Assembly: GCA_965203805.1 (NCBI GenBank)
Contig: OZ241917.1
Coordinates: 32,001 to 96,000 of the forward strand
Direction of reading: 5' to 3'
DNA from: Candidatus Latescibacterota bacterium
Lineage (GTDB): Bacteria > Latescibacterota > UBA2968 > GCA-2709665
Length of the DNA stretch: 64,000 nucleotides
Positions 6,802 to 43,692 of the stretch are shown here, in pieces (position 1 is the stretch's first letter; every line of letters starts with the position of its first letter). A program made the translations under genes and the position numbers. The notes under the pieces are model-generated. The model was not told where the DNA came from, did no database searches, and was given only the letters and a program-made list of their open reading frames with translations.

Positions 6802-6865
6802 TGCGGAAGACGGCGGCGGCCCTGCAGTTTCGCGGATCCGTCCTGTTCTGTCCGGGGAAGGAGAT

Positions 6866-7915
6866 ATGTTAAAGGTCGGGGTTGCCGGTTTGAGGCGTGG
6901 CCGAAGCCTTGCAAATACGTTTCAGAACCATCCGGAAGCGCGACTTGCGGCGGTCTGCGATCCAGTAGCGGAGTGGCGGGAGCGGGCTGCAGACGTCTTT
7001 CGCGTCGGATCGGCGTACGCGGATTTCGACGCGTTTCTGGCGGCGGACCTGGATGTCGTCGTTGTGGCGACGCCGGCGCCCATGCACGCGAACCATTCCA
7101 TTCGGGCGATGGAATCGGGCGCCCACGTCCTGAGCGAGGTTCCAGCCGCCTGGTCGCTGGACGAATCCGACGCGCTGGCCGACGCCGTTCGCCGCACCGG
7201 GCGGATCTACATGATGGCAGAGAATATGAACTTCTACCATTATGTTCAGGACTGGAAGACGAAGATTCAATCGGGTGCAATCGGGCGAGTCTTCTATGCC
7301 GAAGCGGAGTATATACACGATTGCCGGAAACTGATGCAGGGTCCTGGGGGAGAACTGACGTGGCGGGCGTCGATGCCGCCGATTCATTACTGTACCCACA
7401 GCCTCGGTCCGGTTCTGGATATCCTGGACGACCGATGTGTTTCCGCGGTGGGCATGTCGACGGGCACGCATACCGAGCCCGAGATCGGCTCGATTGACAT
7501 GCAGGTGGGGTTGTTCCGGACCGAGAAGGGAAACGTCATCAAGATCCTGTGCGGGTTTACGGTGACCAGGGAGCCCGGGATGCACTGGCAGATCTTCTAC
7601 GGTACCGAGGGTACCCTGGAAAACAGAAGGGCGCCGTGGGAAGACGCCAAGATTTTCCGTACGGGTGAGGGGCCAATGGAGAAAATTCAGGCACTGGACT
7701 CCGATCCCGATGCGCCCGTGGAGGCCAGGGCCGGTGGGCACGGGACCTCGGAATACTTCATGGTGGACCGGTTCGTGCGGGCCGTTTACGGCCGGGGGCC
7801 CGTACCGATAGACGTCTACCGGTCGCTGGATTTTTCGGTCCCGGGACTGTGCGCGCATCTGTCGGCGCAACAGGGTAGCGCGCCGGTCGACGTTCCGGAT
7901 TACAGGGTCCATTGA
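6866..7915 (+). CDS. Gfo/Idh/MocA family oxidoreductase
   Basis: KVGVAG, VVVATP..HA, HVLSEVP, AEYIHD, YCTHSLGP, GHGTSE. Confidence 0.9.
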   Translation: MLKVGVAGLRRGRSLANTFQNHPEARLAAVCDPVAEWRERAADVFRVGSAYADFDAFLAADLDVVVVATPAPMHANHSIRAMESGAHVLSEVPAAWSLDESDALADAVRRTGRIYMMAENMNFYHYVQDWKTKIQSGAIGRVFYAEAEYIHDCRKLMQGPGGELTWRASMPPIHYCTHSLGPVLDILDDRCVSAVGMSTGTHTEPEIGSIDMQVGLFRTEKGNVIKILCGFTVTREPGMHWQIFYGTEGTLENRRAPWEDAKIFRTGEGPMEKIQALDSDPDAPVEARAGGHGTSEYFMVDRFVRAVYGRGPVPIDVYRSLDFSVPGLCAHLSAQQGSAPVDVPDYRVH

Positions 7916-7985
7916 GTCCCGTCGTTCCGGTCCGTGCCGGGCGACGACCCGGCTGCGCATCTGATCCGGATCCTCGTCTGAAATC

Positions 7986-8014
7986 TTGAATCGGCCGACC
8001 CAATTGGGTATATT
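7986..8014 (+). promoter_or_regulatory. sigma70-type promoter
   Basis: TTGAAT-N17-TATATT, overlapped by palindrome ACCCAATTGGGT. Confidence 0.5.
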
Positions 8015-8113
8015 CGCCGGGCAATCAGGCGAAATTTACATGGCGGCTCCGGTCGGAACCACCGGGATTCGACCGCATTCTACGCTGTTTTCAATTTCCA
8101 AGGAGGGCGTGTT

Positions 8114-9259
8114 TTGGCTGCAAATGAGTGGACGACGGTCAATGCTTCGGGAAATCTGCGCGTGGTGGTTACCAAGGAACTTCCTGGCGACCGCTGGCTG
8201 AATATTCTGGAACGGGCGGGATGTCGGGTTGAATACAATACCTCCACCCGGATCCTGCAGGTGGATGAAATCGAAGCGGCAATCGGCGATCGTTGCGACG
8301 GTGTGATCGGACAGCTTACCGAAGATTGGGGGGAACCGCTCTTTTCGGCACTGAAAGCGGCCGGCGGCAAAGCCTACAGCAACTACGCGGTAGGCTATAA
8401 CAACGTGGACGTGGATGCGGCCACGCAGAATGGAATTCCCGTTGGAAACACGCCGGGCGTATTGACGGAAACCACGGCCGAAATGGCGATCGCGCTTACC
8501 TTCTCGGCCGCGCGCCGCGTGGTGGAAGCCGATGAATACATGCGCGGCGGCAGGTACGAAGGATGGTTGCCCACCCTGTTCCTGGGGCAGTTGCTGAACC
8601 GCAAGACCGTCGGAGTGATTGGCGCCGGGCGGATCGGTGCGACCTATGCGCGAATGATGGTCGAAGGGTTCAAGATGAACTTCATCTATTACGATCCCTA
8701 CCCGAATGAGCGCCTCGAAGATTACATACGCGACTACGGCGCGTTCCTTGAGGCTCACGGCGAAGAGCCAGTGAGCGTGACCCGGGCAGACACCGCGGAA
8801 GAGGTGTTGCGCGAGGCCGACGTGGTGAGCCTGCATCCGCTTCTGGATCCGACAACGCACCACCTGATGAACGAGGAACGCCTGAACCAGATGAAGTCCG
8901 ATGCCATTCTGGTAAACGCGAGTCGCGGCCCCGTCATCGACGAAACCGCGCTCGTGGCGCACTGCAGAAAAAATCCGGACTTCAGGGTCGGGCTCGACGT
9001 CTTTGAAGACGAGCCGGAAATGAAGCCCGGATTGAATGAACTGAACAACGTGGTGATCGTTCCCCACATCGCGTCGGCAACGAGTTGGACCCGCGAAGGG
9101 ATGGCGACGCTCGCCGCCAGCAATGTCGCGGGCGTTCTTCGGGGCTTTCCCGCGTGGGCGGACCAGGACGACATCCTGCCGTTTCTGGGCGACGGCGCGC
9201 CCAGCGCGTGTCCGAGTATCGTGAATGCGGAAGAACTCGGACTGCCGGTCGCGGGGTAA
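8114..9259 (+). CDS. D-glycerate dehydrogenase / hydroxypyruvate reductase (plant HPR1-like)
   Basis: GVIGQLTEDWGE, AVGYNNVDV, NTPGVLTETTAE, GAGRIG, VNASRGP, PHIASA; SD AAGGAGG before TTG start. Confidence 0.93.
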   Translation: MAANEWTTVNASGNLRVVVTKELPGDRWLNILERAGCRVEYNTSTRILQVDEIEAAIGDRCDGVIGQLTEDWGEPLFSALKAAGGKAYSNYAVGYNNVDVDAATQNGIPVGNTPGVLTETTAEMAIALTFSAARRVVEADEYMRGGRYEGWLPTLFLGQLLNRKTVGVIGAGRIGATYARMMVEGFKMNFIYYDPYPNERLEDYIRDYGAFLEAHGEEPVSVTRADTAEEVLREADVVSLHPLLDPTTHHLMNEERLNQMKSDAILVNASRGPVIDETALVAHCRKNPDFRVGLDVFEDEPEMKPGLNELNNVVIVPHIASATSWTREGMATLAASNVAGVLRGFPAWADQDDILPFLGDGAPSACPSIVNAEELGLPVAG

Positions 9260-9360
9260 TCGAACCCGTCCGGCTGCGGATGACCAGGACCAGAGCGGCG
9301 GGGTTCCACGCGCACAAGGCGTGAAATCCCGCCGTTCGGTTTTTCGTGGCACGGCGCCGT

Positions 9361-10218
9361 TCACTCCGTTATCTTCGCAATTGCGATTCCGTATTCACCG
9401 GCGACGGAGTAGAGAAGATAGGTATCGGCGTCCTCCCGGTAGATCCCCGGATCGCGAAGCTGCCGCACCCGCTCGGGGGACCATCCGCGTCGGGAGGGCT
9501 CGAGGGGAAGGTCGGCGCCTTCGTAGTCGGTTTCGGGTTCGAGGATGACCTCGGCCCCGGACGCCTGCCAATTCATCCAGTCCGGCGTAAGGCCGACCCG
9601 GGAGCGCAGGATCCGTTCGGGGCAGTCGTGTGCGTTTGAATAGAAGACCGAGAGCGTGTCGCCATCCAGTTTCAGGGCCGTGTGGCGCTGGTCTTCGGAG
9701 AACAATACCGGCCCCTCCTCGAAATCCGTGAGGCCGTCCGACGACCGATAGAAGATCCCCGGCATACCCAGCGCATACGTCGCACCGCGCCAACGGAAGA
9801 CCCGGAAATAGGAATTGCCGAGGTTTTCCGGATATGCTGTGAAGTGAATCCCGTCAGCCGACAGCGCGATTTTGGACTGTTGGCCGTGGCCCGGCACCGG
9901 GCCGTGGTAGTACATCCTGAATTCGCGATTCCTGTCGTCCACGTGGACGTCCGGGGAGGCGAGGTGTCCGGTGGTGTAGGCGTCTTTCAGATCCAGCACC
10001 CCGGGTTCGTAGGTGGTCCACGGACCGGAGAGCCGGTCCGAAAAGGCAAGGCGGATATACTCGCCGCGATGGTGACCGAAATAGAGATAGTACCTGCCGA
10101 GGGGGTCCGGGAGCCATTCGGGAACCCGGACGAGGGATGGACCGTTGACGTTGTCGCCCATCCGGGCGTCCATATGCGGACGGATAATGGGGTTGTCCGG
10201 CAGTCTTTCGATGCGCAT
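9361..10218 (-). CDS. five-bladed beta-propeller glycoside-hydrolase-like protein (GH43/32/130 superfamily)
   Basis: NPII, NGPSL...YYLYF.HH.G.YIRLA, HLASPDV, QLRDP. Confidence 0.65.
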   Translation of the reverse strand: MRIERLPDNPIIRPHMDARMGDNVNGPSLVRVPEWLPDPLGRYYLYFGHHRGEYIRLAFSDRLSGPWTTYEPGVLDLKDAYTTGHLASPDVHVDDRNREFRMYYHGPVPGHGQQSKIALSADGIHFTAYPENLGNSYFRVFRWRGATYALGMPGIFYRSSDGLTDFEEGPVLFSEDQRHTALKLDGDTLSVFYSNAHDCPERILRSRVGLTPDWMNWQASGAEVILEPETDYEGADLPLEPSRRGWSPERVRQLRDPGIYREDADTYLLYSVAGEYGIAIAKITE

Positions 10219-29316: not shown

Positions 29317-30297
29317 ATGACCATGAGCCGCACGATACGTGGAATCACGTTATTTCTGTTTGCCCAACTAGTTCTTGCAACCCAGCCCGTTCAGGCGCAG
29401 CCCGGCGTGAGCTGACGCCGTCCCGTGCTCCCGGGCGGGAGAATGCTGCAGGGCAGTCTGATCACCAAAGACCTGCTGGTTCTGAGCGTGAATTACGAGT
29501 ATGAGTACCTGGGAGATGCGATGTACGGTACCGGGCCGATACCCAACATCAACCAGGAAGTGACCAGCATGTCCACAGTGTCCGTATTCGCCAGTTACGG
29601 GGTCAAGGACTGGTTCGGCGCCGCCGTGGTTCTACCGTTTCGTTCCATAACCAACGATAAAATCCTCCTTCCCGGTCAGTACGACAACCAGTATCAGGGC
29701 GGCGAATACATCCGGCATGCCGCGGGCCTCGGCGACGTCGTTCTGATGTTGAACTTTGCTCCACCACTGCCGGAATCGTTGCCAGGCCTGCTCTTTTCTG
29801 CAGGTGTCAAGCTCGCGAACGGGTCGACCCACGCGGTCGACGAATACGGCGAGCGCTTCGCCGACCTGCTGCAGGTGGGGTCAGGAAGCATGGATCCCAT
29901 TTTCTCGGTCAGTCTGTCGCGCGCATTCGACAACCTGTTTTTCAACGGTATGCTGTTCACCCGCATTATTTCCCGCGAGAATGTATACGGCTACAAATAC
30001 GGGAACGAGTTTCAGGGCATCTTTTCGATGGAGTATATGCACGGGGAAAAGCTCATTGCGGGTGTCAGCATGAACCACGTCTACACGTCGCGCGATTATT
30101 TCCAATATGGAAAGATCGCCCGAAAACGCGGCGGCACCTGGCTGTATCTTGCACCGAAGCTGGGCATACGGGCAACGGAGAATCTGAGCCTCGAGGCCCG
30201 GCTGCCGCTGCCGGTCTATCAGAACGTGAACGAAAGCCAGTTGACGTCCGACTACCAGCTCCACGTAGGCGCCACGTATCACTTTTTCGCACGCTAG
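29317..30297 (+). CDS. outer-membrane beta-barrel 'transporter'-family protein; probable selenoprotein (UGA at 29413-29415)
   Basis: SD GGAGG, ATG 29317, signal peptide ending VQA, in-frame TGA at codon 33, continuing into the 29425 ORF (GLGDV, QVGSGS.DP, YKYGN, LPVYQNVN..QL, C-terminal Y.F). Confidence 0.75.
29428..29441 (+). promoter_or_regulatory. candidate bacterial SECIS element
   Basis: CTCCC-GGGC-GGGAG hairpin; loop begins with G at position +18 after the TGA. Confidence 0.6.
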
Positions 30298-30338
30298 GGG
30301 CCGCCTCGCGTCGTTTCGGGTAGCGTCCGGAGGCTTCC

Positions 30339-31073
30339 GTGGCACCCAGAGAAACCGAAAAAATGTGGGTCGCTCTGGCGCCGTTCTACGACGTGATGTA
30401 TCAGTGGAAGGATTACCGGGCCGAGTCGGAGCAAGTACATCAGATGATCCAGGCAAGGCGCGTGTCATCCGGCCGTTCTCTGCTGGACGTCGCGTGCGGG
30501 ACCGGGGAACACGTCCGGTTCTTGCGGGAGCACTACGACGTAACCGGACTGGATCTGAACCGTGAGATGTTGAAGGTGGCGCGCAGCAAGAATCCCGGCA
30601 TCCCTCTGCGTTGTCGCGACATGACCTCCTTCGACCTGAAACGCCGCTTCGACGCCGTCGTCTGCCTGTTCAGTTCGATCGCTTACGTCAGGACCTACCG
30701 GAATCTTGGACGGTCGATCGCGTGTTTCGAAAAACACCTGAAACCGGGCGGCGTACTTGTCATCGAGCCCTTTTTCACGACCGAGACGTTTCTGCCGGGG
30801 TCGATACACGGCGGCACCATGGAAGGAAAGGGTGTCAGAATCTCCAGGCACAGCGTGAGCAGGCGCCGCGGAAACCTGGCCGTTCTCGATTTCCATTTTC
30901 TCCTATCCACAAAAAAGGGCGTACGATACTTCCACGATACCCACGAACTGGCGCTCTTCGACCGGTCGCGGTTCCTTGAAATCCTTTCGAACGCCGGGCT
31001 CCGCACCTGGTATTGCGAGGATGGATTGACGCCGGGTCGAGGGCTGTACGTGTCGTTGAAAGCGCTCCCGTAA
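30339..31073 (+). CDS. class I SAM-dependent methyltransferase (DesVI/TylM1-like)
   Basis: LLDVACGTG.H, FDAVVCLFSSIAY, HLKPGGVLVIEP. Confidence 0.88.
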   Translation: MAPRETEKMWVALAPFYDVMYQWKDYRAESEQVHQMIQARRVSSGRSLLDVACGTGEHVRFLREHYDVTGLDLNREMLKVARSKNPGIPLRCRDMTSFDLKRRFDAVVCLFSSIAYVRTYRNLGRSIACFEKHLKPGGVLVIEPFFTTETFLPGSIHGGTMEGKGVRISRHSVSRRRGNLAVLDFHFLLSTKKGVRYFHDTHELALFDRSRFLEILSNAGLRTWYCEDGLTPGRGLYVSLKALP

Positions 31074-31258: not shown

Positions 31259-32629
31259 ATGGATACACCCGGCAATGACGTTTCCGGAAATGGCCGGCAC
31301 GACCGGAACCCCCAGGTTCTGGGCAGGAATTTCATGTTTCCGCCCCACGTGATCGACGATATCCACATCAAGGCGAATCTGGGGCGGTACCGCATGCGGG
31401 GCATGGCGCTTTTCAAGCAGATTCCATCGTGGGACGACCTGACGTTTCTTCCCGGCACGCTCACAAGGTTCGTGATCGAGGGATACCGCGAGAAATGTGA
31501 GACACGGACCGTGATCGGGCCCGGGGCCGAACGGCCGCTCGTTCTGGATATTCCCATCTACATTACGGGCATGAGCTTCGGCGCGTTGTCCTACGAGGCG
31601 AAAGTGGCGCTGGCGAGAGGGGCCACGATGGCGGGAACCGCGACCTGCTCGGGAGAAGGCGGCATGCTGCCCGATGAGCGCCGGTATTCCGAGAAGTGGC
31701 TCTACCAGTGCATCCAGTCCCGCTACGGGTTCAACCCGCACCACATGCGTCTCGCCGACGGCGTGGAGTTCTTCATCGGACAGGGATGCAAGGTGGGGCT
31801 CGGCGGACACCTGATGGGCCAGAAAGTAACCGACCAGGTGGCTGAAATGCGTTCGCTGCCCGCGGGGATCGACCAGCGTTCGCCGGCGAGGCACCCGGAC
31901 TGGCTGGGCCCCGACGACCTTGCCCTGAAGATCGAAGAGATCCGGGAGGCGACCAACTGGCAGGTGCCCATTCAATTGAAACTCGGCGCGGCCCGGGTCT
32001 ACGACGACGTGCGGATGGCGGCGAAGACGGGGCCCGACAGCATCTATATGGACGGGATGGAGGGCTCGACCGGGGCCGGGCCCCACCTGGCCACCGAGGA
32101 GACGGGCGTTCCGGGAATCGCGGCCATACGGCAGGCCAGAAAGGCGCTGGACGACGTCGGCAAGACCGGAGCGATCACGCTCGTCTACGCGGGCGGGATT
32201 CGCAATGGCGCCGACGTGGCCAAGGCGCTTGCGCTTGGCGCGGACGCGGTTGCCATCGGTACGGCGGCAATGGTGGCGCTGAATTGCAACAAGGATATCC
32301 CCGAGGCGGATTACGAAGGCACGGTCGGCGTTCCGGCGGGGCAATGCTATCACTGCCATACAGGACTCTGTCCCGTGGGCGTGGCCACCCAGGATCCGGT
32401 ACTGCGCGGCCGGCTGGACCCGGATGAGGCGGCCGGGCGTGTGTATAACTTCCTGCATACCCTGGCGATCGAATGCCAGATGTTCGCCAGGGCCTGCGGC
32501 AAGACCGATGTTCACTCCCTGGAGCCGGAGGATCTCGCCGCGCTTACCATGGAAGCCTCCGCCATGGCGGAGGTGCCCCTGGCCGGAACCCGATATACCG
32601 TCGGGCATCCCGAAATGAACAGGTATTGA
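31259..32629 (+). CDS. mgsC: FMN-binding glutamate synthase family protein; N-methylglutamate synthase subunit C-like
   Basis: GMSFGALS, SGEGG, GQGCKVGLGGHL, RSPARHPDW.GPDDL, C.HCHTG.CPVG; operon context with gmaS and tdm. Confidence 0.8.
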   Translation: MDTPGNDVSGNGRHDRNPQVLGRNFMFPPHVIDDIHIKANLGRYRMRGMALFKQIPSWDDLTFLPGTLTRFVIEGYREKCETRTVIGPGAERPLVLDIPIYITGMSFGALSYEAKVALARGATMAGTATCSGEGGMLPDERRYSEKWLYQCIQSRYGFNPHHMRLADGVEFFIGQGCKVGLGGHLMGQKVTDQVAEMRSLPAGIDQRSPARHPDWLGPDDLALKIEEIREATNWQVPIQLKLGAARVYDDVRMAAKTGPDSIYMDGMEGSTGAGPHLATEETGVPGIAAIRQARKALDDVGKTGAITLVYAGGIRNGADVAKALALGADAVAIGTAAMVALNCNKDIPEADYEGTVGVPAGQCYHCHTGLCPVGVATQDPVLRGRLDPDEAAGRVYNFLHTLAIECQMFARACGKTDVHSLEPEDLAALTMEASAMAEVPLAGTRYTVGHPEMNRY

Positions 32630-32659: not shown

Positions 32660-33097
32660 ATGGACGAAGCCAAAGACGTGAACTACTACCTGAAATCCAC
32701 GGGGCTGGACTCGGACCGGGAGAAGGAAATCGGACAGCACATCGGATACCGGTACGATGTGAACCTGCCGCCGGACTACGGGCTTCTGACGCCGTTCCTG
32801 GAGCGGTACACAGAGGTGATGGGGTGGAGGGACCTGAACTGGCTGGAAGACGTACATATGGGATACGAAGACGGAAAGCCGGCGGTATTCGACCGGAACA
32901 TCAATGGCTGGGTGCTGGTGCCCGAAGATATGACGCTGCCCGACAACCAGCAGGAACGTGACATGATTGCGCGGGAACTGCTCGTCAAGTTTCAGATGTC
33001 CGATAGGCATCCGATGATTGAACTTGGAGATGCCTACGGCCTGAAGCTGGAAGACGAAGACGGCGCGCATGGAGCAGACTCAAACCCGGCAACCTGA
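32660..33097 (+). CDS. hypothetical protein (145 aa, acidic)
   Basis: SD AGGAG; typical codon use; embedded in the operon. Confidence 0.8.
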   Translation: MDEAKDVNYYLKSTGLDSDREKEIGQHIGYRYDVNLPPDYGLLTPFLERYTEVMGWRDLNWLEDVHMGYEDGKPAVFDRNINGWVLVPEDMTLPDNQQERDMIARELLVKFQMSDRHPMIELGDAYGLKLEDEDGAHGADSNPAT

Positions 33098-33113
33098 AAA
33101 CCCGGGAGGCGGT

Positions 33114-34508
33114 ATGAGCAATGCGAAGATGTGGGGCCCGGAGGCGTTCTGGGGTCTGGACTACGACTGGGATCCCCAATGGGTGTTGACGCCCGGACAA
33201 CAGGCGCTCCAGGAGAAACTGATCGACCTCTGCCGGACAACGCTGCGGGACAACGCCGTCGAGAGCGATCGCAACCTCGTGTTTCCACGGGAGAATTTCA
33301 GAGCGCTGGCTTCGCTGGGTCTGCTGGGACTGAACGTGCCACGGGAATGGGGAGGCCTGGGAGAAGACCACACGTGTACGGCGATGGTGGTGGAGACGAT
33401 CGCGCGTTACGGGTGCGCCAGTACCGCGATGTGTTATACCATGCACATCGGGGCCGTGGCCGCCGCGATGTTTCGGGCGCACGACAACGCGACGCTTCAA
33501 AGCCTTATGAAGCGCCTCGACAGCGACGTGCTGGTGGGCACGTTATCCTATTCGGATCCGGAGACGGGCTCTCATTTCTGGTACCCCATTTCTTCCGGAG
33601 CCGAGCGGGTGGAAGGCGGCTGGAAGGTGCGAAAAAAGGCGTCTTGGACGACGTCCGCGGGTTTCGCCGACTGGTACATCGTGCAGACGACGAGCCCCGA
33701 TTTCGCCGGCGATTATTCGAATCTTTCCTGCTTCCTCGTCATGGCGGACGAGGTGAAGGCGGAACCGTCGCTGTGGGACGGCCTGGGGCTGCGCGGGAAT
33801 CAGTCCGGCACGCTGGAGGTCGACAACGTCACGATGCCGGAGAACAGGCTGGTGGGGCCGGTGGGCGACGGGGCGAATTCGAATGACGAAACGGTGGATC
33901 CGTTCTTCCTGTTATGTTCATCGGCCTGCTGGAACGGCATTTCTCTGGGGATGATCGACATCGCCAGGCGGCACACAACCGCGCGGCGACACGCCGACGT
34001 GGGCATGCGGGTGGCGGACTATCCGACAATCCAGGACTACGTAGGCGAGGCCGTGATCGATACCAACGCCTCCCGGTCCTTTGTCTACCTGATGGCCCGC
34101 GCGATGGACGACGTCACGAATCAGTGCGACTGGTCCATCCACCGGGACCTCTCCCGCATGCCACGGGCGGACGTGCTGCACTGGATGTGGCAGGTAAAGT
34201 TCACCGCGGCGAAGAACGTGGCAAACGTCTCCGACAAGATGCTTCATGCCTGCGGCGGGACGGGGTACAAACCCGATCTGGGGATTGAACGATACCTGCG
34301 CGACGGCAAGGCCGGCTGGGTGATGGGCCCCACGAACGAGGTCCTCCGCCAGTTTGTAGGGAAGAGCGTACTGTTGGGATTCGACTCGCTGGACTACTGG
34401 AACCAGTCGGTGAACGAGCGCCTGTTGAGGAACGAACTCAAGAAAATGGACGGCGAGACCAAGAAGGAACTCGCGCGTCAGCTTCTGGCTGAAACCGAAG
34501 ACGGGTGA
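33114..34508 (+). CDS. acyl-CoA dehydrogenase-fold flavoprotein (putative two-component monooxygenase)
   Basis: GLLGL.VPREWGGLG, STAMCYTMH, SYSDPETGS, K.SWTTS, WDGLGLRGNQS, CGGTGY...IERYLRD; SD GGGAGG before ATG 33114. Confidence 0.85.
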   Translation: MSNAKMWGPEAFWGLDYDWDPQWVLTPGQQALQEKLIDLCRTTLRDNAVESDRNLVFPRENFRALASLGLLGLNVPREWGGLGEDHTCTAMVVETIARYGCASTAMCYTMHIGAVAAAMFRAHDNATLQSLMKRLDSDVLVGTLSYSDPETGSHFWYPISSGAERVEGGWKVRKKASWTTSAGFADWYIVQTTSPDFAGDYSNLSCFLVMADEVKAEPSLWDGLGLRGNQSGTLEVDNVTMPENRLVGPVGDGANSNDETVDPFFLLCSSACWNGISLGMIDIARRHTTARRHADVGMRVADYPTIQDYVGEAVIDTNASRSFVYLMARAMDDVTNQCDWSIHRDLSRMPRADVLHWMWQVKFTAAKNVANVSDKMLHACGGTGYKPDLGIERYLRDGKAGWVMGPTNEVLRQFVGKSVLLGFDSLDYWNQSVNERLLRNELKKMDGETKKELARQLLAETEDG

Positions 34509-36841
34509 TGCCTGCGGATGTCCAAATGACGGGGACGGGGCTGCTGAGGTGGACGCCGGGCAGGGAGCGCTATCGGGTGCCGGGCGGGGGGGCGATCGCC
34601 CTTGCGCTTTCGCCCGGCGACCGGCTGGCCGTTGTGGACGTGGAGGGGCGCCAGCGATGCGAACTGGGTGTGTTCGGCCCGGATGGCAATGCCGATCCGT
34701 CCAGGCTGGGCGTTCGGGCCGATGGCCCGATGGAGGGTTTCGCGTCCGCGCTCAGGCGGGGCGACGACAGCGCGCAGGCGGCCGACGCGGCGCTTCGGCG
34801 GCGCGGCGTTGACCTTGCCCGGGCCAGAGCGGTGCAGGTTTTCGGCGGAGAAACGGAAGCCGGCGCCGAAGCGTGCTTCGACGTCGCAGACGACGCCGTT
34901 TGCCTGATTGCGGCGCCTGGCGGACCGATGAGGGTGGATGCCCAGGACCCTCCCACGGAGCTCGACGTCGTGGTCAGGCGCTCGCGCGTTGAGGCGCCGG
35001 AACGCCACCCGCTGCCTTCGCCCCTGGGTGACATGCGCCTGGATCTGGAGGTGGAGAGGGCGTCGGCGATCGCATACGAGGTAAAGGCCGGAGAGTTCAT
35101 CCAGGTGATCGACGCCGCCGGCAGGCAGTGTTCCGATTTTCTGGCCTTCGACGCGAGGCAGTTGCAGCGGGGCATTGAGCGGGGGCTGGACGCGACCACG
35201 ACGCGTACGCTCATGGGCCGGGCCTATCCCGGTCCGGGACTTTTCTCGAAGTTTTGCGACCAGGATATGCAGCCGCTGGTGGAAGTCGTTCGGGATACGG
35301 TAGGTCGGCACGATACGTTTGCGCTTGCGTGCACCGCGAGATATTACGAGGATATGGGTTACCCGGGCCACGTCAACTGTACTGACAACTTCAACGCGGC
35401 ACTGGACCCGTATACGATTCAGCCCCGGCGCGGCTGGCCCGCGGTGAATTTTTTCTACAATACGAGAATAGACCTTAATAACGTCCTTTTCCTGGACGAA
35501 CCATGGTCTCGTCCGGGTGACTACGTGCTGCTGAAAGCCCTGACGGACCTGGTTTGCCTGTCGTCCGCGTGCCCGGACGATATCGATCCGGCCAACGGCT
35601 GGGAGCCAACAGAGATCCAGGTCCGCGTCTACCCCGAACGGTACCGGTTTTCCAGAGGAATTGCGCACCGGATGACGGCAGACGCCGAACCGAGGCTGAC
35701 GAGGGAGACGGCCTTTCACCGGCGAACCTCGGCCCTGACCCGACACTTCGAGGAATACCGCGGTTACTGGCTGCCGTCCTCCTTCACGGGGACCGGCGCC
35801 GTCGAGGAGTATTATGCCTGTCGCGAGGCGGCGGCGGTGATGGACCTGTCCGCGCTTCGCAAGTTCGAGGTCCTGGGGCCGGACGCGGAAGCGCTTCTGC
35901 AGCACACCCTCACGCGAGACGTTCGCAGGCTTTCAGCGGGCCAGGTGACGTATTCCGCCATGTGTTATGAAACCGGCGGCATGCTGGACGACGGCACCCT
36001 GTTCCGGTTGGGCCCGGAGAATTTTCGCTGGATTTGCGGCGAGGATTACGGCGGCGTGTGGTTACGCGAGCAGGCGAGTCGCCGCGGGATGCGGGTGTGG
36101 GTCAGAAACGCCACCGACCAACTCCACAATCTTGCCGTCCAGGGCCCGAGAAGCCGGGATATTCTCGACGAAATCATCTGGACGCCTCCGTCCCGCCCGT
36201 CCCTGGCCGAATTGGGCTGGTTCCGATTCACGGTGGGTCGAATCGACGACGGAAGCGGAGCGGCGGTCGTGGTATCCAGGACCGGCTATACGGGCGAACT
36301 GGGCTATGAGGTGTGGTGCCATCCCGACGATGCGCCCGCGGTCTGGGATGCCATATGGGAATCCGGGCAGCCGCATGGCCTGACCCCGCTGGGGCTGGAA
36401 GCCCTGGACATGCTTCGGATCGAGGCCGGTCTCGTTTTCGCCGGCTGCGAGTTCGACGATCAGACGGACCCGTTTGAGGCGGGCATCGGCTTCACCGTGC
36501 CGCTCAAGCGAAAGAAAGACGATTTCATCGGCAAAGAGGCGCTTATTCGAAGACGGTCCGATCCGCAACGCGTGCTCGTGGGGCTGGAGCTGTCCGGAAA
36601 CGAGCCCGCCGCCACCGGCGACGACGTCTATGACGGACGGGGCCGCGTGGGCGTGATTACCAGCGGCACCCGCTCACCCATTCTGGGCAGGAATATCGCG
36701 CTGTGCCGTCTGGCGACCGGGTACGCAGCCGTCGGCGTGGCCGTGGAGGTGGGAAGGCTGGACGGACATCAGAAGCGGATCCCCGCCCGCGTGGTGCGGT
36801 TTCCGTTCTACGATCCGGAGAAGACCCGGCCCCGGGCCTGA
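34508..36841 (+). CDS. tdm: trimethylamine N-oxide demethylase (DUF1989 + GcvT aminomethyltransferase fusion)
   Basis: ERYRVPGGG N-terminus, GRQCSDF, HDTFALAC...GH.NC...SSACPDD Cys set, DLSALRKF, RTGYTGELGYE, LRIEAGL. Confidence 0.85.
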   Translation: MPADVQMTGTGLLRWTPGRERYRVPGGGAIALALSPGDRLAVVDVEGRQRCELGVFGPDGNADPSRLGVRADGPMEGFASALRRGDDSAQAADAALRRRGVDLARARAVQVFGGETEAGAEACFDVADDAVCLIAAPGGPMRVDAQDPPTELDVVVRRSRVEAPERHPLPSPLGDMRLDLEVERASAIAYEVKAGEFIQVIDAAGRQCSDFLAFDARQLQRGIERGLDATTTRTLMGRAYPGPGLFSKFCDQDMQPLVEVVRDTVGRHDTFALACTARYYEDMGYPGHVNCTDNFNAALDPYTIQPRRGWPAVNFFYNTRIDLNNVLFLDEPWSRPGDYVLLKALTDLVCLSSACPDDIDPANGWEPTEIQVRVYPERYRFSRGIAHRMTADAEPRLTRETAFHRRTSALTRHFEEYRGYWLPSSFTGTGAVEEYYACREAAAVMDLSALRKFEVLGPDAEALLQHTLTRDVRRLSAGQVTYSAMCYETGGMLDDGTLFRLGPENFRWICGEDYGGVWLREQASRRGMRVWVRNATDQLHNLAVQGPRSRDILDEIIWTPPSRPSLAELGWFRFTVGRIDDGSGAAVVVSRTGYTGELGYEVWCHPDDAPAVWDAIWESGQPHGLTPLGLEALDMLRIEAGLVFAGCEFDDQTDPFEAGIGFTVPLKRKKDDFIGKEALIRRRSDPQRVLVGLELSGNEPAATGDDVYDGRGRVGVITSGTRSPILGRNIALCRLATGYAAVGVAVEVGRLDGHQKRIPARVVRFPFYDPEKTRPRA

Positions 36842-36960
36842 TCGATAAGCGAATTCCGCGACGCGTCACCGGGGGTTTCGGCGGCCCGGTTGACGGCGTC
36901 CGGACGGCCGGCGGCGGATGAGGCCGGATCCTGCGCCGCGTCCGTTGAGAGGGTATCGGA

Positions 36961-37449
36961 ATGGCGTTCGACCCGATGGAACAACGGCGGATAATGGGTT
37001 GTTTCGCGACCGGGGTAACCGTCGTGACGGCGGTTGCGGGAGGCGAGGCGAGAGGGATGACGGCCAATGCCGTGACCTCGCTGTCGCTGGACCCGCCCCT
37101 GGTCATGGTTGCCGTGGACAAAGGGGCGCAGATGCACGCCCATCTGACCGCCAGCCGCCAATTTGCATTGAATATCCTCAGCGAGGATCAGGAGGCGCTT
37201 TCCGTACAGTTCGCCAGGCCGGGCCCGAAGGACTTTTCGAACGTGGCTTCAACCGCTGGCCGGACGGGCTCGCCCGTCTTCGCGGACGCGCTGGGCCACG
37301 TGGAGTGTCTGCTGGTCGACGTACTGCGGACCGGCGACCACGACATTTTCGTTGGTGAGATTGTGGCGGGCGACGCCGGCGAGGGTCGTCCGCTGCTGTT
37401 TTACCGGGGGAAGTACAGCCGGATGGCGGAAGGGTCCGCGGAGGTCTGA
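36961..37449 (+). CDS. flavin reductase (HpaC/RutF family)
   Basis: MG.FATGVTVVT, GMTAN..TSLSLDPPLV, GDH.IFVG. Confidence 0.92.
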   Translation: MAFDPMEQRRIMGCFATGVTVVTAVAGGEARGMTANAVTSLSLDPPLVMVAVDKGAQMHAHLTASRQFALNILSEDQEALSVQFARPGPKDFSNVASTAGRTGSPVFADALGHVECLLVDVLRTGDHDIFVGEIVAGDAGEGRPLLFYRGKYSRMAEGSAEV

Positions 37450-37503: not shown

Positions 37504-38895
37504 ATGGATAACGAACTCAGCGCATTGACGGTCGTATTTACGGAATTCTATTACTGGATATGCATCGTTCTCATGTTCCTGATCCACGTCGGCTTCTGTC
37601 TGTATGAAGTCGGCGTCTCCAGGCGGAAGAATATGATGCACACCCTGATGAAGAACGCGATGTTGATTCCGCTGGTGACCATCACGTTCTATTTCTTCGG
37701 GTGGTGGATCTACTTTGCGGTGCAGAACGGGCCCGGGATCACGGGCGGACTCATACAAGCCGCCTGGGCGGAGCCGTGGAATGAACTGATGGGGACGCAT
37801 ATGGGAGGAAAGCCGCACGCCGGCGGGTTGACCGGGGATGATACGGCTCTCTGGGCGCGGTTGAACGGCGTGTTCTGGGCGGCGTTTCTTCTGTTTTCGT
37901 GGACGGCTGGATCGATTCTTTCCGGGGCGGTAATCGAACGCATCCGATCCGGCGCGTTCTGGATCTTTGCGATACTGGTGGGGTCGGTCACCTGGGTGAT
38001 CGATGCGGCGTGGGGATGGTCCGCGGACGGCTGGATGGTGCAGTTGCTGGGTTACCACGACGCGTACGCGTCCGGCGTGATCCACGGGATCAGCGGCGGT
38101 TCCGCGCTGGCGATACTCTATCACCTCGGGCCCCGCATCGGCAGGTTCAGGCCTGACGGCTCTCCCAGGATTTTCCCGCCGCAGAACACGTGGCTGGTCA
38201 TTATCGGACTGTTTTTGATCTATACCGGATTCTGGGGCTTCTATGCGGCCTGCAACGTTCCCATTATGGACATCGATGCCGCAGACGGCAGGTCGTTCTT
38301 CTCGGCCACCACGATTTACCTCACACCCACGACGCTCAGCGCCATCACCTTCAACTTTCTGATGTCTCTCGCCGGCGGATTGATCATGGGGTATTTCGTG
38401 TCCAAAGGCGATCCTTACTGGACCTTCTCGGGCGGACTTGCCGGCATCATCACGGCGTCGGCCGGCAACGACCTGTATCATCCGATGCAGGCGCTTCTCA
38501 TCGGCGCATTCGGCACGTTCTGCATGTACAGGTTGCACAATTGGGTCGAACGCCGCTTCAGGATCGACGATGCGGTGGGCGCCGTGGCGGTGCACGGATA
38601 TGCCGGGGTCATCGGCGTTATTGTCGCGGGATTCGTCCTGTGGGGGTATCCGGGCGCTAATCCCGATTACGCCCCGATAACGCCGTGGGGTCAGACGCTC
38701 GGCGCCGTCATCATGTTTTTCGTGCTGGGTTTTCTGCCATGTTACGTGGTGGGTGCGATTCTCAAGAAGCTGGGCGTTCTCCGCATTCCGGCGCAAATCG
38801 AACTGGCGGGTCTGGATCACACGACCATCGAGAACGAAACGGCCGACGCGAACGAACTCGTCCAGGCGGAAGTCGACGAAGCGCGGGGAAACTGA
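37504..38895 (+). CDS. amt: ammonium/methylamine transporter (Amt family, divergent)
   Basis: Polytopic membrane protein; HVGF..YE.G..R.KN, SGAVIER, LGPR.G.F, IDDAVGAVAVHG, E..GLD. Confidence 0.88.
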   Translation: MDNELSALTVVFTEFYYWICIVLMFLIHVGFCLYEVGVSRRKNMMHTLMKNAMLIPLVTITFYFFGWWIYFAVQNGPGITGGLIQAAWAEPWNELMGTHMGGKPHAGGLTGDDTALWARLNGVFWAAFLLFSWTAGSILSGAVIERIRSGAFWIFAILVGSVTWVIDAAWGWSADGWMVQLLGYHDAYASGVIHGISGGSALAILYHLGPRIGRFRPDGSPRIFPPQNTWLVIIGLFLIYTGFWGFYAACNVPIMDIDAADGRSFFSATTIYLTPTTLSAITFNFLMSLAGGLIMGYFVSKGDPYWTFSGGLAGIITASAGNDLYHPMQALLIGAFGTFCMYRLHNWVERRFRIDDAVGAVAVHGYAGVIGVIVAGFVLWGYPGANPDYAPITPWGQTLGAVIMFFVLGFLPCYVVGAILKKLGVLRIPAQIELAGLDHTTIENETADANELVQAEVDEARGN

Positions 38896-38904
38896 AGGGA
38901 ATCG

Positions 38905-40590
38905 ATGGGCGAGCAAGGGATATTGCCGGATATCGAAATCGCGAGGCAGGCCGATTTGCTTCACGTCGGCGATGTCGGGAGAAAGCTGGGCGTACCCGAA
39001 GATCAACTGGAGGTCTACGGCAGGTACAAGGCCAAGGTTTCGATGGGTTTTTGCGACAGCCTGGCCGGAAATCCCACCGGTAAACTCGTGCTGGTCTCGG
39101 CGATCAATCCGACGCCCTCCGGCGAGGGCAAGACCACGACAACCGTGGGTCTGGGCGACGCGCTGAACCGGCTGGGCAAGCGCGCGGCCGTGTGTCTCAG
39201 GGAGCCCTCTCTGGGTCCCTGTTTCGGCATGAAGGGAGGCGCTGCCGGCGGCGGGGCCGCGCAGGTCGCGCCAATGGAGGACATCAACCTGCACTTTACG
39301 GGCGATATCCATGCCATCGGCGTCGCCCACAATCTGCTGGCCGCGGCAGTCGACAACCACATTCATCACCGCAACAGGCTGGATATCGATCCCCGGCGCA
39401 TCCTGTGGAAGCGCGCCCTGGATATGAACGACCGGGCGTTGCGCGATATCGTCATCGGTCTCGGGGGCACGGGGAATTCCTATCCTCGAGAATCCGGGTT
39501 TGAAATCACGGTCGCGTCCGAAGTGATGGCGATCTTCTGCCTGTCCGAGTCGCTCGACGAGCTTCGTGAGCGTCTGGGTCGAATCATAGTGGCGCGTACA
39601 CGGGCCAACGAACCGGTTACGGCGGCGGACCTCAATGTGCACGGGGCGATGGCCGTGCTGTTGAAGGACGCGCTGAAACCGAATCTGGTCCAGACGATCG
39701 AGAATAACCCGGCGATCGTCCACGGGGGTCCGTTCGCCAATATCGCGCACGGATGCAACTCGGTGATCGCGACCAAGCTGGCGATGCGTCTGGCCGAATA
39801 CACTGTGACCGAAGCCGGATTCGGCGCGGACCTCGGCGCGGAGAAATTTCTGAACATCAAATGCCGGCAGGCCGGCATCCGCCCGGACGTGGTCGTGCTC
39901 GTGGCAACCGTCCGGGGGCTGAAATACCACGGGGGGACGTCGCTCAGGAGGCTGGCGGACCCCGATCCGGCCGCCGTGGAGAAAGGACTTGTAAATCTCA
40001 GGAAGCATATTGAAAATGTCCGGCGTTTCGGTCTGCCGGCGGTCGTCGCAGTGAACCGGTTTCTAACCGACACCGCCGATGAGGTCGCATTGATCGTGGA
40101 CAGGTGCGCCGACATGGACTTGCCGATCGTTCCTTCGGAACACTGGGCCGCAGGGGGGGCCGGCGCCGAAGCGCTTGCCCGAACGGTCGTCGAAGCCGCG
40201 GAAACGGGGCCTGCCGATTTCAACCTTCTGTATCCCGACAGTCTGCGGTTGTGGGACAAGGCCAGGATTGTGGCCCGGGAAATCTACGGCGCCGACGATA
40301 TCATGGGGGACAAACGCCTGAGAGCCCGGTTCGGAAAGCTCGAGGAAGCGGGGTACGGAAGGTTTCCGGTTTGTATGGCCAAGACCCAGTATTCGCTCTC
40401 GACCGATCCGGGACTGAAGGGCAGACCGAGAGGTTTCGACGTGCCCATCCGCGACGTGAGGGTGTCTGCCGGGGCCGGTTTCGTGGTGGTGTACACCGGC
40501 GATGTCATGACAATGCCGGGGCTGCCCCGCAAACCCTCTGCCGAGGCCATCGACTACGATGAAGCCGGACAGACCGTGGGTCTGTTCTGA
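38905..40590 (+). CDS. fhs: formate--tetrahydrofolate ligase
   Basis: [54 protein letters not shown]. Confidence 0.97.
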
Positions 40591-40728
40591 CGGCACGAGC
40601 CGCCACCGATGGTGTCCGCCGTCTCCGGGGAGCGCGACATCTTCGAAACCAGGCATCCGGACGCTTCGCTTCAGCTTCCGAATGAGACGAATGGTTTCAA
40701 CATACTCACCAGTGTAAGGAGGTGGCAG

Positions 40729-40959
40729 ATGAGAACGGGTCAGATAGACACGTGGACGGGAAATCCGGCTGACGTCGGTCCGATGTACCCCTTTGTCGGG
40801 TACGAGGTTCCTCTATTCGTGGTTTGTGTTGTCCTGTGGCTCGCGTACACGGTCTGGCAGATGAAACACGAGAACGCGGTTTACCGGGAGGAACTGGATC
40901 AGTGCGCCAGCGCCGGCTCTTCGGCATCGGCAACAGAAGGCGAGAGCAAGGATTCCTAA
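40729..40959 (+). CDS. small single-TM membrane protein (76 aa)
   Basis: SD TAAGGAGGT; W.G....VGPMYPFVG.E followed by a hydrophobic helix. Confidence 0.75.
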   Translation: MRTGQIDTWTGNPADVGPMYPFVGYEVPLFVVCVVLWLAYTVWQMKHENAVYREELDQCASAGSSASATEGESKDS

Positions 40960-40986: not shown

Positions 40987-42321
40987 ATGACGCTGGACCA
41001 GGTTAAAGATTTCGTAGAGAAAAATGGAATAGACTTCTTTCTGTGCTCGTTTGTGGAGATGAGCGGGATGCCCAAGGCCAAGGTGGTGCCGGTCACGCAC
41101 CTGGACGACATGGCCTCGGAAGGCGCGGGGTTCGCGGGGTTCGCGGCGGGCAATATGGGACAGGGGCCGCACGATTCCGATATGATGAACATACCGGATT
41201 TCAGTTCGATGACCGTGTTGCCATGGCGCAAGAACACGGCGTGGGTGGCGGGTAACATCCAGGTCGAAGGGGAACCGTTCGGCTACTGTCCCCGGACGAT
41301 TATGCAGCGCCAGCTCGAGAAGGCCGAGGCAAGGGGTTATCGGTTGAATCTGGGCGTGGAAGCGGAGTTCATCCTCCTGAAGAAGGACGATCAGGGCCAA
41401 TATACGCTGGCCGACCCGATGGACACGCTGGAAAAGCCCTGTTATGATCTCGTCACGCTGCATCGCAATCTGGATGTGATGACCACGCTCATCGGGTATA
41501 TGCAGGAGCTGGGATGGGAACCCTATGCCAACGACCACGAAGACGCCAATTGCCAGTTCGAGATAAACTGGACCTATTCCGACGCGCTCACGACCGCGGA
41601 CCGGCAGACCTTTTTCAGGTGGATGGTGAAAGTGAACGCGGAGCGTCACGGATACCACGCGACCTTCATGCCGAAACCGTTTTCTCATCTCACCGGCAGC
41701 GGGGCGCATTATCACATGAGCCTGTGGGACCCGGAGAACAGGATCAATCTATTCCTCGACGAGGCAGACGAAAACGGGCTGTCGAAGGAAGCTTACTGGT
41801 TCATGGCGGGCATCCTCAACCACGCCAAGGCGATTTCGGCCGTTTCCGCGCCGCTGGTGAACAGCTATAAGCGACTCACGAGGGGCGCGCCTCGCTCAGG
41901 GGCCTCCTGGGCGCCGATCTGTATCACGTACGGTGGATCGAACCGGACGCAGATGGTTCGCATCCCGGACGCGGGGCGTATCGAGAATCGGGCGATCGAC
42001 GGGGCGGCCAATCCCTATCTGACGACCGCGGCGATGCTGGCGGCGGGGCTCGACGGCATCGAAAACCGCATGGATCCGGGCGAACGCAACGAGGGCAACC
42101 TCTACGAGGTGTCCGAGAGCGAATTGAAAGCGCGGGGCGTCGACCTGCTGCCGGGGACCCTGGCCGAGGCGGCCGATCACCTGGCGTCCGACGACGTGAT
42201 CCGGGAAGCGCTCGGAACGGAATATGCCGACTACTACGTGCAGGTGAAACGCGAAGAGTGGGCGGAGTACCATCTGCACGTCGACCAGTGGGAGCGGGAA
42301 CGCTATCTGCCGGTGTATTAA
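40987..42321 (+). CDS. gmaS: gamma-glutamylmethylamide synthetase / type III glutamine synthetase
   Basis: KAK.VP, GAGFAGFA, NDHEDAN.QFE.N, TFMPKPF, NRT.M.RIP..GR.E.R..DG..NPY; context with mgsC and tdm. Confidence 0.85.
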   Translation: MTLDQVKDFVEKNGIDFFLCSFVEMSGMPKAKVVPVTHLDDMASEGAGFAGFAAGNMGQGPHDSDMMNIPDFSSMTVLPWRKNTAWVAGNIQVEGEPFGYCPRTIMQRQLEKAEARGYRLNLGVEAEFILLKKDDQGQYTLADPMDTLEKPCYDLVTLHRNLDVMTTLIGYMQELGWEPYANDHEDANCQFEINWTYSDALTTADRQTFFRWMVKVNAERHGYHATFMPKPFSHLTGSGAHYHMSLWDPENRINLFLDEADENGLSKEAYWFMAGILNHAKAISAVSAPLVNSYKRLTRGAPRSGASWAPICITYGGSNRTQMVRIPDAGRIENRAIDGAANPYLTTAAMLAAGLDGIENRMDPGERNEGNLYEVSESELKARGVDLLPGTLAEAADHLASDDVIREALGTEYADYYVQVKREEWAEYHLHVDQWERERYLPVY

Positions 42322-42348
42322 AGCTGGTTGACGTCGCGAGGTCTGCCT

Positions 42349-43692
42349 ATGGAGAGTGCAGTTGAACGGACGGTTCGGGAAGCGCCGCGGGGCATTGGAG
42401 GATTGCTCCGAAATATCGGTCCGGGCGTAGTTGTGTCCGGATCGGTGGTCGGGTCCGGCGAGTTGCTCGTTACGACGCGCATGGGCGCCGAGGTGGGCTT
42501 CGTGTTTCTCTGGGGGGTGATCCTGGCCTGTCTGGTCAAGTTCTTCATCCAGCTTGAACTCGGGCGCCAGTGCGTTCTGCACAACAGTACGACGATACAG
42601 GTACTGGATCGTGTGCCCGGAATGCGGCTGGCGAATACCTCGTGGGCGGCATGGTTGTGCGTGCTGGGATACTTCTCGGTAATGATCGCCGTGATCGGCA
42701 TCCTGGGGTCGGTGGCCGGACTGATGGTGACCCTCCTTCCCGGCGTCCCGTACAACGTCTGGGCCGTTCTGGTATTCGCGGCCATCTCGATTCTGCTGTA
42801 CCGGGGTCTGTACGCCGACCTGGAGCGCATGATCACCGTACTGGTTGCGGGCTTCAGTCTGGTTGTTATCGGGTCCGTCGTGGCGATGCAGGCAACGCCC
42901 TACGCCGTGGGCGGCGACGAGATATTGTCAGGGTTTCGCTTCGCCTTGCCGGCGGACGGGGCATTTGTGGCCATGGCTGTGATGGGGTCGGTGGGCGCGA
43001 CGGCGGTGGAGTTGTTTATGTATCCTTACTGGGTGAGGGAAAAAGGGTATGCGGATTTCGTCGGACCTCGTGAGGATACACCTGAATGGCGGGCGCGCTA
43101 TCGGGGCTGGATGCGGGTGCTGAAAACCGACGCGCTGGTCTGCACGGGAATCGCATTGGTGATTACCTGCGCCTACTATCTGCTGGGCGCTGCGATACTC
43201 AAGAAACTGAACGTGGTTCCCCAGGGCATGGAGGTCGTCGAGCAGGTATCGCTGATTTTTACACGAAGCATCGGACCGTGGACCAAGAACGTGTTCATGT
43301 TCGGCGCGTTCTGCACGCTGTTTTCCACGCTGCTCGTCTTTACCGCCAGTTCGGGACGCATCAGCGTGGACTTTCTGAGGCGGACGGGCGTCGCCAGTCT
43401 CGATCACGAGGACGGCCGGCTTCGGCTGCTGAGGGCGTTGCAGATCGCCTTTCCGTTTCTGTGGCTCTGTGTGACCATTGCAACCCCGAATACGCCCCTG
43501 GCCCTGGTGCTGATCGGGGCCAATGCCAATAACCTGCTGCTGATTCCGATGGCCTACGGCGTGGTGCACCTGGCGATGCGCGCCGCGGACCCGGAACGGA
43601 TGTCCGTCTGGACGGAACTTGGATTGCTGCTGACGATCTGGGCGATCATCAACTTTACCGCGATCAATCTGTATCTGAACTGGACGCGTTAG
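42349..43692 (+). CDS. NRAMP-like (APC superfamily) secondary transporter
   Basis: IGPG.V..GS.VGSGEL..TT..GA..GF, many TM helices, YPYW..EKG. Confidence 0.8.
   Translation: MESAVERTVREAPRGIGGLLRNIGPGVVVSGSVVGSGELLVTTRMGAEVGFVFLWGVILACLVKFFIQLELGRQCVLHNSTTIQVLDRVPGMRLANTSWAAWLCVLGYFSVMIAVIGILGSVAGLMVTLLPGVPYNVWAVLVFAAISILLYRGLYADLERMITVLVAGFSLVVIGSVVAMQATPYAVGGDEILSGFRFALPADGAFVAMAVMGSVGATAVELFMYPYWVREKGYADFVGPREDTPEWRARYRGWMRVLKTDALVCTGIALVITCAYYLLGAAILKKLNVVPQGMEVVEQVSLIFTRSIGPWTKNVFMFGAFCTLFSTLLVFTASSGRISVDFLRRTGVASLDHEDGRLRLLRALQIAFPFLWLCVTIATPNTPLALVLIGANANNLLLIPMAYGVVHLAMRAADPERMSVWTELGLLLTIWAIINFTAINLYLNWTR

Follow-up and report, generated by a model that had tools for sequence, protein, structure and literature searches.

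An acyl-CoA dehydrogenase-fold protein and a flavin reductase flanking tdm: a candidate two-component trimethylamine N-oxygenase in a Latescibacterota genome

A methylated-amine operon of a Candidatus Latescibacterota bacterium carries, on either side of the trimethylamine N-oxide (TMAO) demethylase gene tdm, one gene for a protein of the acyl-CoA dehydrogenase (ACAD) fold and one for a flavin reductase. We lean toward the view that these two proteins form a two-component trimethylamine (TMA) N-oxygenase, a non-homologous replacement for the TMA monooxygenase Tmm. The DNA we analyzed, hereafter the window, is a stretch of 64,000 nucleotides, bases 32001-96000 of the single 5.87-Mb contig of this genome (GenBank assembly GCA_965203805.1, contig OZ241917.1; marker-gene completeness 99.8%), and its closest relatives are metagenome-assembled genomes (MAGs) labelled Candidatus Latescibacterota or Gemmatimonadota. 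The ACAD-fold protein has lost the dehydrogenase base, its gene travels with tdm and with a reductase gene, and in a random sample of tdm-carrying genomes it never occurs together with Tmm. The oxygenase chemistry, TMA as the substrate and the type of flavin are what we infer for the pair.

Our random sample consisted of 401 evenly drawn Alphaproteobacteria, in which tdm was found in 33 and the gene of the ACAD-fold protein (E<=1e-100; hereafter ACAD, for gene and protein) in 10. True Tmm was counted, here and throughout, as a match to NF058570 over its cut-off of 675. The 33 tdm-carrying genomes divide into 9 with ACAD, 15 with Tmm, none with both and 9 with neither (p=0.0013), and thereby show the anti-correlation with tmm for which an initial annotation of the window had proposed a check. 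In a wider comparison, Tmm is present in 6 of 57 ACAD-carrying genomes against 15 of 24 tdm-carrying genomes without ACAD (p=4e-6). ACAD also occupies the slot beside tdm that tmm holds in Tmm-type loci: two such loci (L118, L119) read u145 ... Tmm, tdm and the window reads u145, ACAD, tdm, u145 being a conserved gene for a protein of 145 amino acids (aa). The absence of overlap and the shared slot support the initial proposal that the pair stands in for Tmm. In Xanthobacter flavus 301, which has no Tmm and does have the dimethylamine (DMA) monooxygenase Dmm, turning TMA into TMAO is consequently the only unassigned step.

The broader profile PF00743, which is FMO-like (FMO, flavin-containing monooxygenase), was tried as a probe for Tmm and dropped, as the full-length matches that were checked score 100-144 on NF058570. 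The match of true Tmm to PF00743 is confined to its first ~210-240 positions, which makes PF00743 a misleading marker of tmm. Two full-length PF00743 proteins encoded in tdm-carrying genomes (L097, 1441-2802; L087, 1417-2874) are not Tmm.

Linkage to tdm is the second line of evidence. One genome per species was scanned for ACAD, giving 254 confirmed loci, the best 80 of which were analyzed; 50 of the 80 were taken to whole genomes, and these were chosen by us in favor of long contigs and breadth. Locus neighbors were sought by tblastn within 10 kb, and a locus was called fully flanked when at least 8 kb was available on both sides (n=47). The tdm gene is present at E<=1e-100 in 48 of the 50 chosen carrier genomes, in 44 of them above the curated cut-off, and 9 of the 10 carriers in the random sample have it (Fisher p=5e-10), the tenth being genome G098; the co-occurrence of the two genes, also proposed as a check, is found in both sets. 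The distance from tdm to ACAD is at most 10 kb in 39 of the 47 fully flanked loci and in 53 of all 80. Within the same distance, 32 of the 47 fully flanked loci have a PF01613 reductase homologue, as do 49 of all 80. The best NCBIfam matches of the window's flavin reductase are reductases of two-component monooxygenases, all of them sub-cut-off.

Cousins of the ACAD-fold protein supply a further link to a reductase. Two of them, P0122 (770 aa, 52% identity) and P0134 (882 aa, 36%), continue at the C-terminus into FNR-type FAD_binding_6 and NAD_binding_1 domains, and a shorter, possibly truncated cousin, P0129 (562 aa), likewise has an FNR-type reductase fused to it. By their domain make-up, all three look like self-sufficient versions of the two-component system, which argues for an oxygenase fed by NAD(P)H. 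Fused cousins, loss of the catalytic glutamate and the co-occurrence and co-localization with tdm together support what had been proposed at the outset, that ACAD and the reductase are an oxygenase pair of the methylated-amine pathway.

Window proteins were searched against Pfam and NCBIfam profiles. The operon genes, all on the + strand, are as follows.

31259..32629, + strand: MgsC' (Glu_synthase FMN domain; PF01645, 301 bits), a paralog of the canonical N-methylglutamate synthase subunit C
32660..33097, + strand: u145, 145 aa, conserved, outside any Pfam or NCBIfam family; partner of MgsC'
33114..34508, + strand: ACAD-fold protein, 464 aa (PF02771, PF02770, PF00441), the candidate oxygenase component
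34505..36841, + strand: Tdm, TMAO demethylase (DUF1989 + GCV_T + GCV_T_C; NF053776, 1244 bits against a cut-off of 1100)
36961..37449, + strand: HpaC/HsaB/StyB-type NAD(P)H flavin reductase (PF01613, 147 bits), the candidate reductase component
37504..38895, + strand: Amt-family (ammonium/methylammonium) transporter (PF00909, 190 bits)
38905..40590, + strand: formate-tetrahydrofolate ligase (fhs), for handling of one-carbon (C1) units on tetrahydrofolate (THF) (NF010030, 858 bits against 652)
40609..40959, + strand: open reading frame (ORF) of 116 aa, initially described as a small TM protein; weak sub-cut-off match to DUF4381
40987..42321, + strand: GmaS-type type III glutamine synthetase (gamma-glutamylmethylamide synthetase; TIGR03105, 598 bits against 470)
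42328..43692, + strand: Nramp-like transporter (NF037982, 106 bits against 50)

The stop codon of ACAD (TGA, 34506-34508) overlaps the ATG of tdm (34508) as TGATG. ACAD itself probably starts from the ATG at 33114, downstream of GGGAGG, which corrects the earlier 33069. This overlap, the gene order and a WVMGPT motif in the ACAD-fold protein had all been reported, and all can be read in the sequence. The Amt gene is kept in 20 of 80 ACAD loci at 77-96% identity, and the 116-aa ORF is conserved in related loci. Upstream of MgsC' (29425-31073) stand a 290-aa protein with no family match and a class I S-adenosylmethionine (SAM) methyltransferase, kept only in the closest relatives (L001, L003-L011) at 72-96% identity. 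It had been stated that neither of the two oxygenases of the pathway lies in the window; this is borne out, and across the whole 5.87-Mb genome there are 0 matches to NF058570 for Tmm and 0 to PF11927 for the heme subunit of Dmm.

The ACAD-fold protein belongs to a compact family, 72-98% identical across Latescibacterota, Gemmatimonadota, Acidobacteriota, Alphaproteobacteria and others. Carriers among the best 80 of the 254 loci are Latescibacterota, Gemmatimonadota, Acidobacteriota, many Alphaproteobacteria, Udaeobacter and cyanobacteria; four carriers are cultured, namely X. flavus 301, Labrys okinawensis DSM 18385, Dongia deserti and Virgifigura deserti. Homologues clustered at 50% score 825, 564, 510, 419, 330 and 244 bits, and generic ACAD-like proteins at most 198. 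Public annotations name the protein an acyl-CoA dehydrogenase. All 17 of its NCBIfam matches fall below their cut-offs, every ACAD equivalog far below; the best-scoring curated family, Rv1679/FadE16 (NF049984), gives 218 bits, far under its cut-off of 600, and no function for that family was found in the literature searched. The models for SfnB, HsaA, DszC and the HpaH oxygenase score 53-69 bits.

In the HMMER alignment, GWVMGPTNEV stands against ITQIYEGTNQI of a solved ACAD, so that the catalytic Glu position of medium-chain acyl-CoA dehydrogenase (MCAD) type is a Gly. Of 27 family members, 25 have Gly here and 2 have Ala. At what we take to be the base position of isovaleryl-CoA dehydrogenase (IVD) type the family has Phe264, and its invariant E259 lies five residues upstream. 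The Glu is likewise missing from the 34 nearest representatives outside the family, 21 of which have Ala and 9 Gly. Residues that are invariant only within the family are S256-N257-D258-E259, W273, W402, C268, C272, D136 and D148, and N- and C-terminal extensions are specific to it as well. The protein may thus hold an acidic and aromatic pocket for a small cationic amine. With the catalytic Glu absent and all ACAD equivalog cut-offs missed, it is very probably not a dehydrogenase (EC 1.3.8.-).

The fold itself is that of the ACADs, as seen in the three Pfam domains, in an AlphaFold model with a mean predicted local distance difference test score (pLDDT) of 91.3 and in target-normalized TM-scores of 0.85-0.92 between that model and solved ACAD-fold chains. 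Foldseek and the family profile, run against the PDB, place true ACADs first, with 5z8t, an ACAD-fold chain titled 'Flavin-containing monooxygenase', close behind; 3m9v, which we take to be KijD3, is a profile match at E=1e-16, much lower than the true ACADs at 6e-36. As neither search tells the dehydrogenases of this fold apart from its oxygenases, fold and sequence leave the chemistry undecided. What the protein shares with group D flavin monooxygenases is the ACAD fold, the absence of the catalytic Glu and, on genomic evidence only, a separate NAD(P)H:flavin reductase.

We propose a model in which the reductase would use NAD(P)H to reduce free flavin mononucleotide (FMN) or flavin adenine dinucleotide (FAD). 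The ACAD-fold component would bind the reduced flavin, form a C4a-hydroperoxyflavin with O2 and pass oxygen to the nitrogen of TMA, yielding TMAO. N-oxygenation of a tertiary amine is ordinary chemistry for a C4a-hydroperoxyflavin. The translationally coupled Tdm would then split TMAO into DMA and methylene-THF. In the wider scheme, TMA would be converted to TMAO by Tmm or by ACAD with its reductase, and TMAO to DMA by Tdm; DMA would be carried onward by DmmABC or by a second set of genes, described below, and monomethylamine (MMA) by GmaS, MgsABC and Mgd.

The ACAD-fold protein has no FMO family match in the Pfam and NCBIfam searches and no homology to Tmm, and the claim is accordingly that it works like Tmm rather than being one. 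Several observations weigh against this proposal. The 50 chosen carrier genomes contain Tmm in 6, PF11927 in 5, both in 1 (Labrys) and neither in 40. In three loci (L052, from Virgifigura, L053 and L072) Tmm is encoded 1.6-2.9 kb from ACAD, so ACAD is not a simple Tmm replacement everywhere. The 40 genomes without Tmm and without Dmm fit equally well a route that is entered at TMAO, with ACAD acting on DMA. Whether judged by sequence or by fold, the solved structures closest to the protein are true acyl-CoA dehydrogenases, and the family is not nested in a characterized monooxygenase clade. The co-occurrence statistics count genomes as independent even though related ones have genes in common, and for the many MAGs among them an absence may be incompleteness.

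The alternative that survives best is that the pair oxidizes DMA, either by N-hydroxylation followed by loss of formaldehyde or by methyl hydroxylation, and so fills the gap left where DmmABC is missing and TMAO is the entry compound. We consider this fairly unlikely. It gains from the 40 carriers just described, in which a route from TMAO through DMA to MMA would need one enzyme more, from the three loci with Tmm beside ACAD, whose genomes have no Dmm, and from a certain depletion of Dmm in ACAD-carrying genomes (6 of 57, against 8 of 24 tdm-carrying genomes without ACAD; p=0.02). Against this, the random sample shows no anti-correlation of ACAD with dmm, for which a check had likewise been proposed: PF11927 is present in 10 of the 33 tdm-carrying genomes, 2 of 9 with ACAD and 8 of 24 without (p=0.69). 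ACAD is found in only 7 of the 23 Dmm-less genomes of that set and cannot explain the gap in most. In X. flavus 301 and L. okinawensis, ACAD and Dmm even share one cluster, which encodes ACAD, reductase, Tdm, a permease or GcvT protein, Dmm reductase and Dmm heme subunit. A demethylation would call for hydroxylation of a C-H bond, a reaction uncommon for a C4a-hydroperoxyflavin, and this weighs against the alternative. A variant in which Tdm would also demethylate N-oxygenated DMA was considered and set aside, with no support in the literature searched.

The remaining argument against DMA as the substrate comes from the genes upstream of ACAD. The gene initially described as mgsC-like does not encode the canonical MgsC: a canonical MgsA-MgsB-MgsC-Mgd cluster stands elsewhere in the window's genome, at C1:1.395-1.414 Mb. 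MgsC' is 59% identical to the canonical MgsC of the same genome and keeps 84-97% identity in other phyla. Beside the canonical cluster lies an orphan trio with no Glu_synthase partner, consisting of a glutamine synthetase (GS)-like protein (494 aa), a GATase protein (310 aa) and a GXGXG protein (284 aa), which we call GS', MgsA' and MgsB' (L115, G000:C1:1395000-1414000, at 4561-7847; C1 about 1.3996-1.4028 Mb). MgsC' and u145 do not make up a canonical MgsABC, their GATase' and GXGXG' partners being separate genes. In the window's genome the module is split, GS'-MgsA'-MgsB' lying 1.3 Mb away and MgsC'-u145 beside ACAD-tdm. Elsewhere it is whole: the order GS'-MgsA'-MgsB'-MgsC'-u145 is found in 5 of 5 Tmm-type loci fetched (L116-L120) and in 15 of 80 ACAD loci, with GS', MgsA' and MgsB' 55-87% identical to the orphan trio, and three more loci match part of it. 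The five-gene block directly precedes ACAD-tdm in L012-L014 (about 4800-9980), and small (1.3-1.4 Mb) alphaproteobacterial genomes of marine type also have the module beside tmm and tdm.

The u145 protein had been put forward as a third component of the oxygenase pair, which its distribution contradicts. It adjoins the MgsC' gene in every locus that has both (u145 in 31 of 80 loci, MgsC' in 30 of 80). In a set of 80 genomes, made up of 49 ACAD genomes (G049 was left out) and 31 other tdm-carrying sample genomes, it is present in 65 at 65-94% identity, including Tmm-type genomes without ACAD, where it lies near tmm and tdm. Its ORF has coding-like GC content by codon position and 56 invariant columns across 22 sequences. 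The structural model is of moderate quality (pLDDT 69.7) with no PDB fold match at E<=0.001, and the ESM Atlas gave no usable match. Fusions of MgsC' to u145 were examined and not used as Rosetta-stone evidence. A 602-aa frame in G024 is an overlapping frame, the two genes lying in different frames, and of four database fusions (P0273, P0275 and P0286 among them) three are frameshifted and one is an in-frame read-through, all singletons; P0273, P0275 and P0286 are most likely assembly frameshift artefacts.

The distribution of this module is complementary to that of Dmm. The 33 tdm-carrying sample genomes have u145 only in 21, Dmm only in 8, both in 2 and neither in 2 (p=1.3e-4), and in one of the two with both the Dmm match is weak (51 bits). 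Of the 49 ACAD genomes, 43 have u145, that is, they carry the Dmm-excluding module, and Dmm is present in 4 of the 6 that do not (p=3e-4). Tmm and ACAD each occur in combination with Dmm and also with u145, which speaks for two substitutions made independently and against a single lineage effect, in a comparison that is not phylogenetically corrected. The GS'-MgsA'B'C'-u145 module is thus a better candidate than ACAD for the DMA gap, as an oxygenase-free DMA route; it might run via gamma-glutamyl-dimethylamide and N,N-dimethylglutamate. The initial suggestion that ACAD itself fills that gap is weakened by this complementarity, as it is by the shared clusters in two cultured species and the flat distribution in the random sample. 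It is possible, and we offer it tentatively, that the ACAD pair and this module jointly form a route from TMA to MMA without Tmm and Dmm, in which the module would take DMA without an oxygenase.

A second alternative, quite unlikely in our judgment, is that the pair oxygenates some other small substrate found alongside the pathway, such as dimethyl sulfide (DMS) or other tertiary amines, the N-oxides of which might be accepted by Tdm, or serves a protective or side reaction. TMA is deduced from context alone, 6 of 50 genomes have Tmm as well as ACAD, and relatives in group D are promiscuous on small heteroatom compounds, as described in the accessible part of PMC13352529. A divergent copy (G098:C1:2654841-2656217, 59% identity) sits in the tdm-negative G098. 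The family is nevertheless almost confined to tdm-carrying genomes (9 of 10, 48 of 50), the window's Tdm passes the TMAO demethylase equivalog cut-off, and the very high conservation suggests a single specific function. Another divergent copy, G389:C17:24936-26318 (62%), is a second copy in its genome; the copies in G098 and G389 may be subfamilies with another substrate. It is very improbable that the protein is a true dehydrogenase of acyl-CoA or acyl-carrier substrates, or some other flavin-dependent dehydrogenase or oxidase with no part in amine oxygenation, and that its neighbors are coincidental. Its nearest solved structures and its public annotation are ACADs, but the catalytic Glu is absent, the scores are far under every ACAD equivalog cut-off, the linkage to tdm and to a flavin reductase recurs from phylum to phylum, and cousins carry a fused NAD(P)H reductase.

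In nature, sponge, coral and marine metagenomes from seven studies contain DNA near-identical to window positions 32660-37449, which suggests an association of the organism with marine invertebrates. Contigs of one RNA library, made from a sample that also gave a DNA run, differ from the window by 0-12 letters over 418-652 bases, and DNA carry-over is possible. They span MgsC', u145, the ACAD-tdm junction (34297-34948), tdm, fhs and the transporter, which does not imply a transcript structure.

TMA, TMAO and DMA, which are also aerosol precursors, belong to the major nitrogen and C1 compounds of the sea, soils and animal hosts. In surveys, tmm is the gene by which TMA oxidizers are counted, and dmm the one for DMA oxidizers. 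ACAD occurs without Tmm in 9 of 33 tdm-carrying Alphaproteobacteria and in 20 of 20 genomes of Latescibacterota, Gemmatimonadota and Acidobacteriota examined. If the pair is a TMA oxygenase, it adds a missing step to methylated-amine cycling, and TMA oxidizers are undercounted, ACAD carriers being missed by surveys based on tmm. The four cultured carriers open the function of ACAD to standard genetics and enzymology. For the next step, the accessible part of Lidbury et al. 2017 (PMC5520151) reports dmmDABC to be absent from SAR11 and many marine bacteria and terms this a bottleneck. The module, if it takes DMA, would explain that bottleneck in Dmm-less bacteria, and the fate of DMA there, a question raised in the same part of that paper, becomes testable through GS'-Mgs'-u145. 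In the full-text literature searched, which leaves most subscription journals outside, we found neither an ACAD-fold enzyme for oxidation of TMA or DMA nor a description of a glutamyl route for DMA.

Among known systems, DmmDABC belongs to the same pathway and shares a cluster with ACAD in X. flavus and Labrys. Its proteins, as far as the accessible part of PMC5520151 presents them (a PAS-heme subunit, a ferredoxin reductase and a GcvT protein), are unrelated to the pair, and it co-occurs with ACAD rather than being replaced by it. ACAD-fold amine N-oxygenases include KijD3, DnmZ and isobutylamine N-hydroxylase with its reductase. They have the ACAD fold without the catalytic Glu and carry out N-oxygenation with an externally reduced flavin, as we propose here; unlike our candidate, they act on primary amines in antibiotic biosynthesis.

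A close parallel in kind is Dms1-3 with the NADH:flavin reductase MsuE of Acinetobacter baylyi ADP1, described in the accessible part of PMC13352529 as a group D, ACAD-fold system that oxidizes DMS to dimethyl sulfoxide (DMSO). Judged by that part, both systems combine the ACAD fold with a separate reductase gene, and for both the reaction, in our case as proposed, is heteroatom oxygenation of a very small methylated compound. The two are distant in sequence (63-69 bits with the SfnB and DszC models, whose cut-offs are 431-850), our family has its own terminal extensions and its own polar and aromatic residues, and its context is tdm and gmaS rather than the sulfur assimilation seen in the accessible account, with a presumed amine substrate. 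The same part of PMC13352529 reports that Tmm also oxidizes DMS. Tmm (NF058570) itself shares with the pair the proposed reaction from TMA to TMAO and the place beside tdm, and the two are mutually exclusive in the tdm-carrying sample. They are not homologous: Tmm, of the FMO type, is a class B enzyme that works as a single component with bound FAD and NADPH, whereas the candidate described here is a two-component system built on the ACAD fold.

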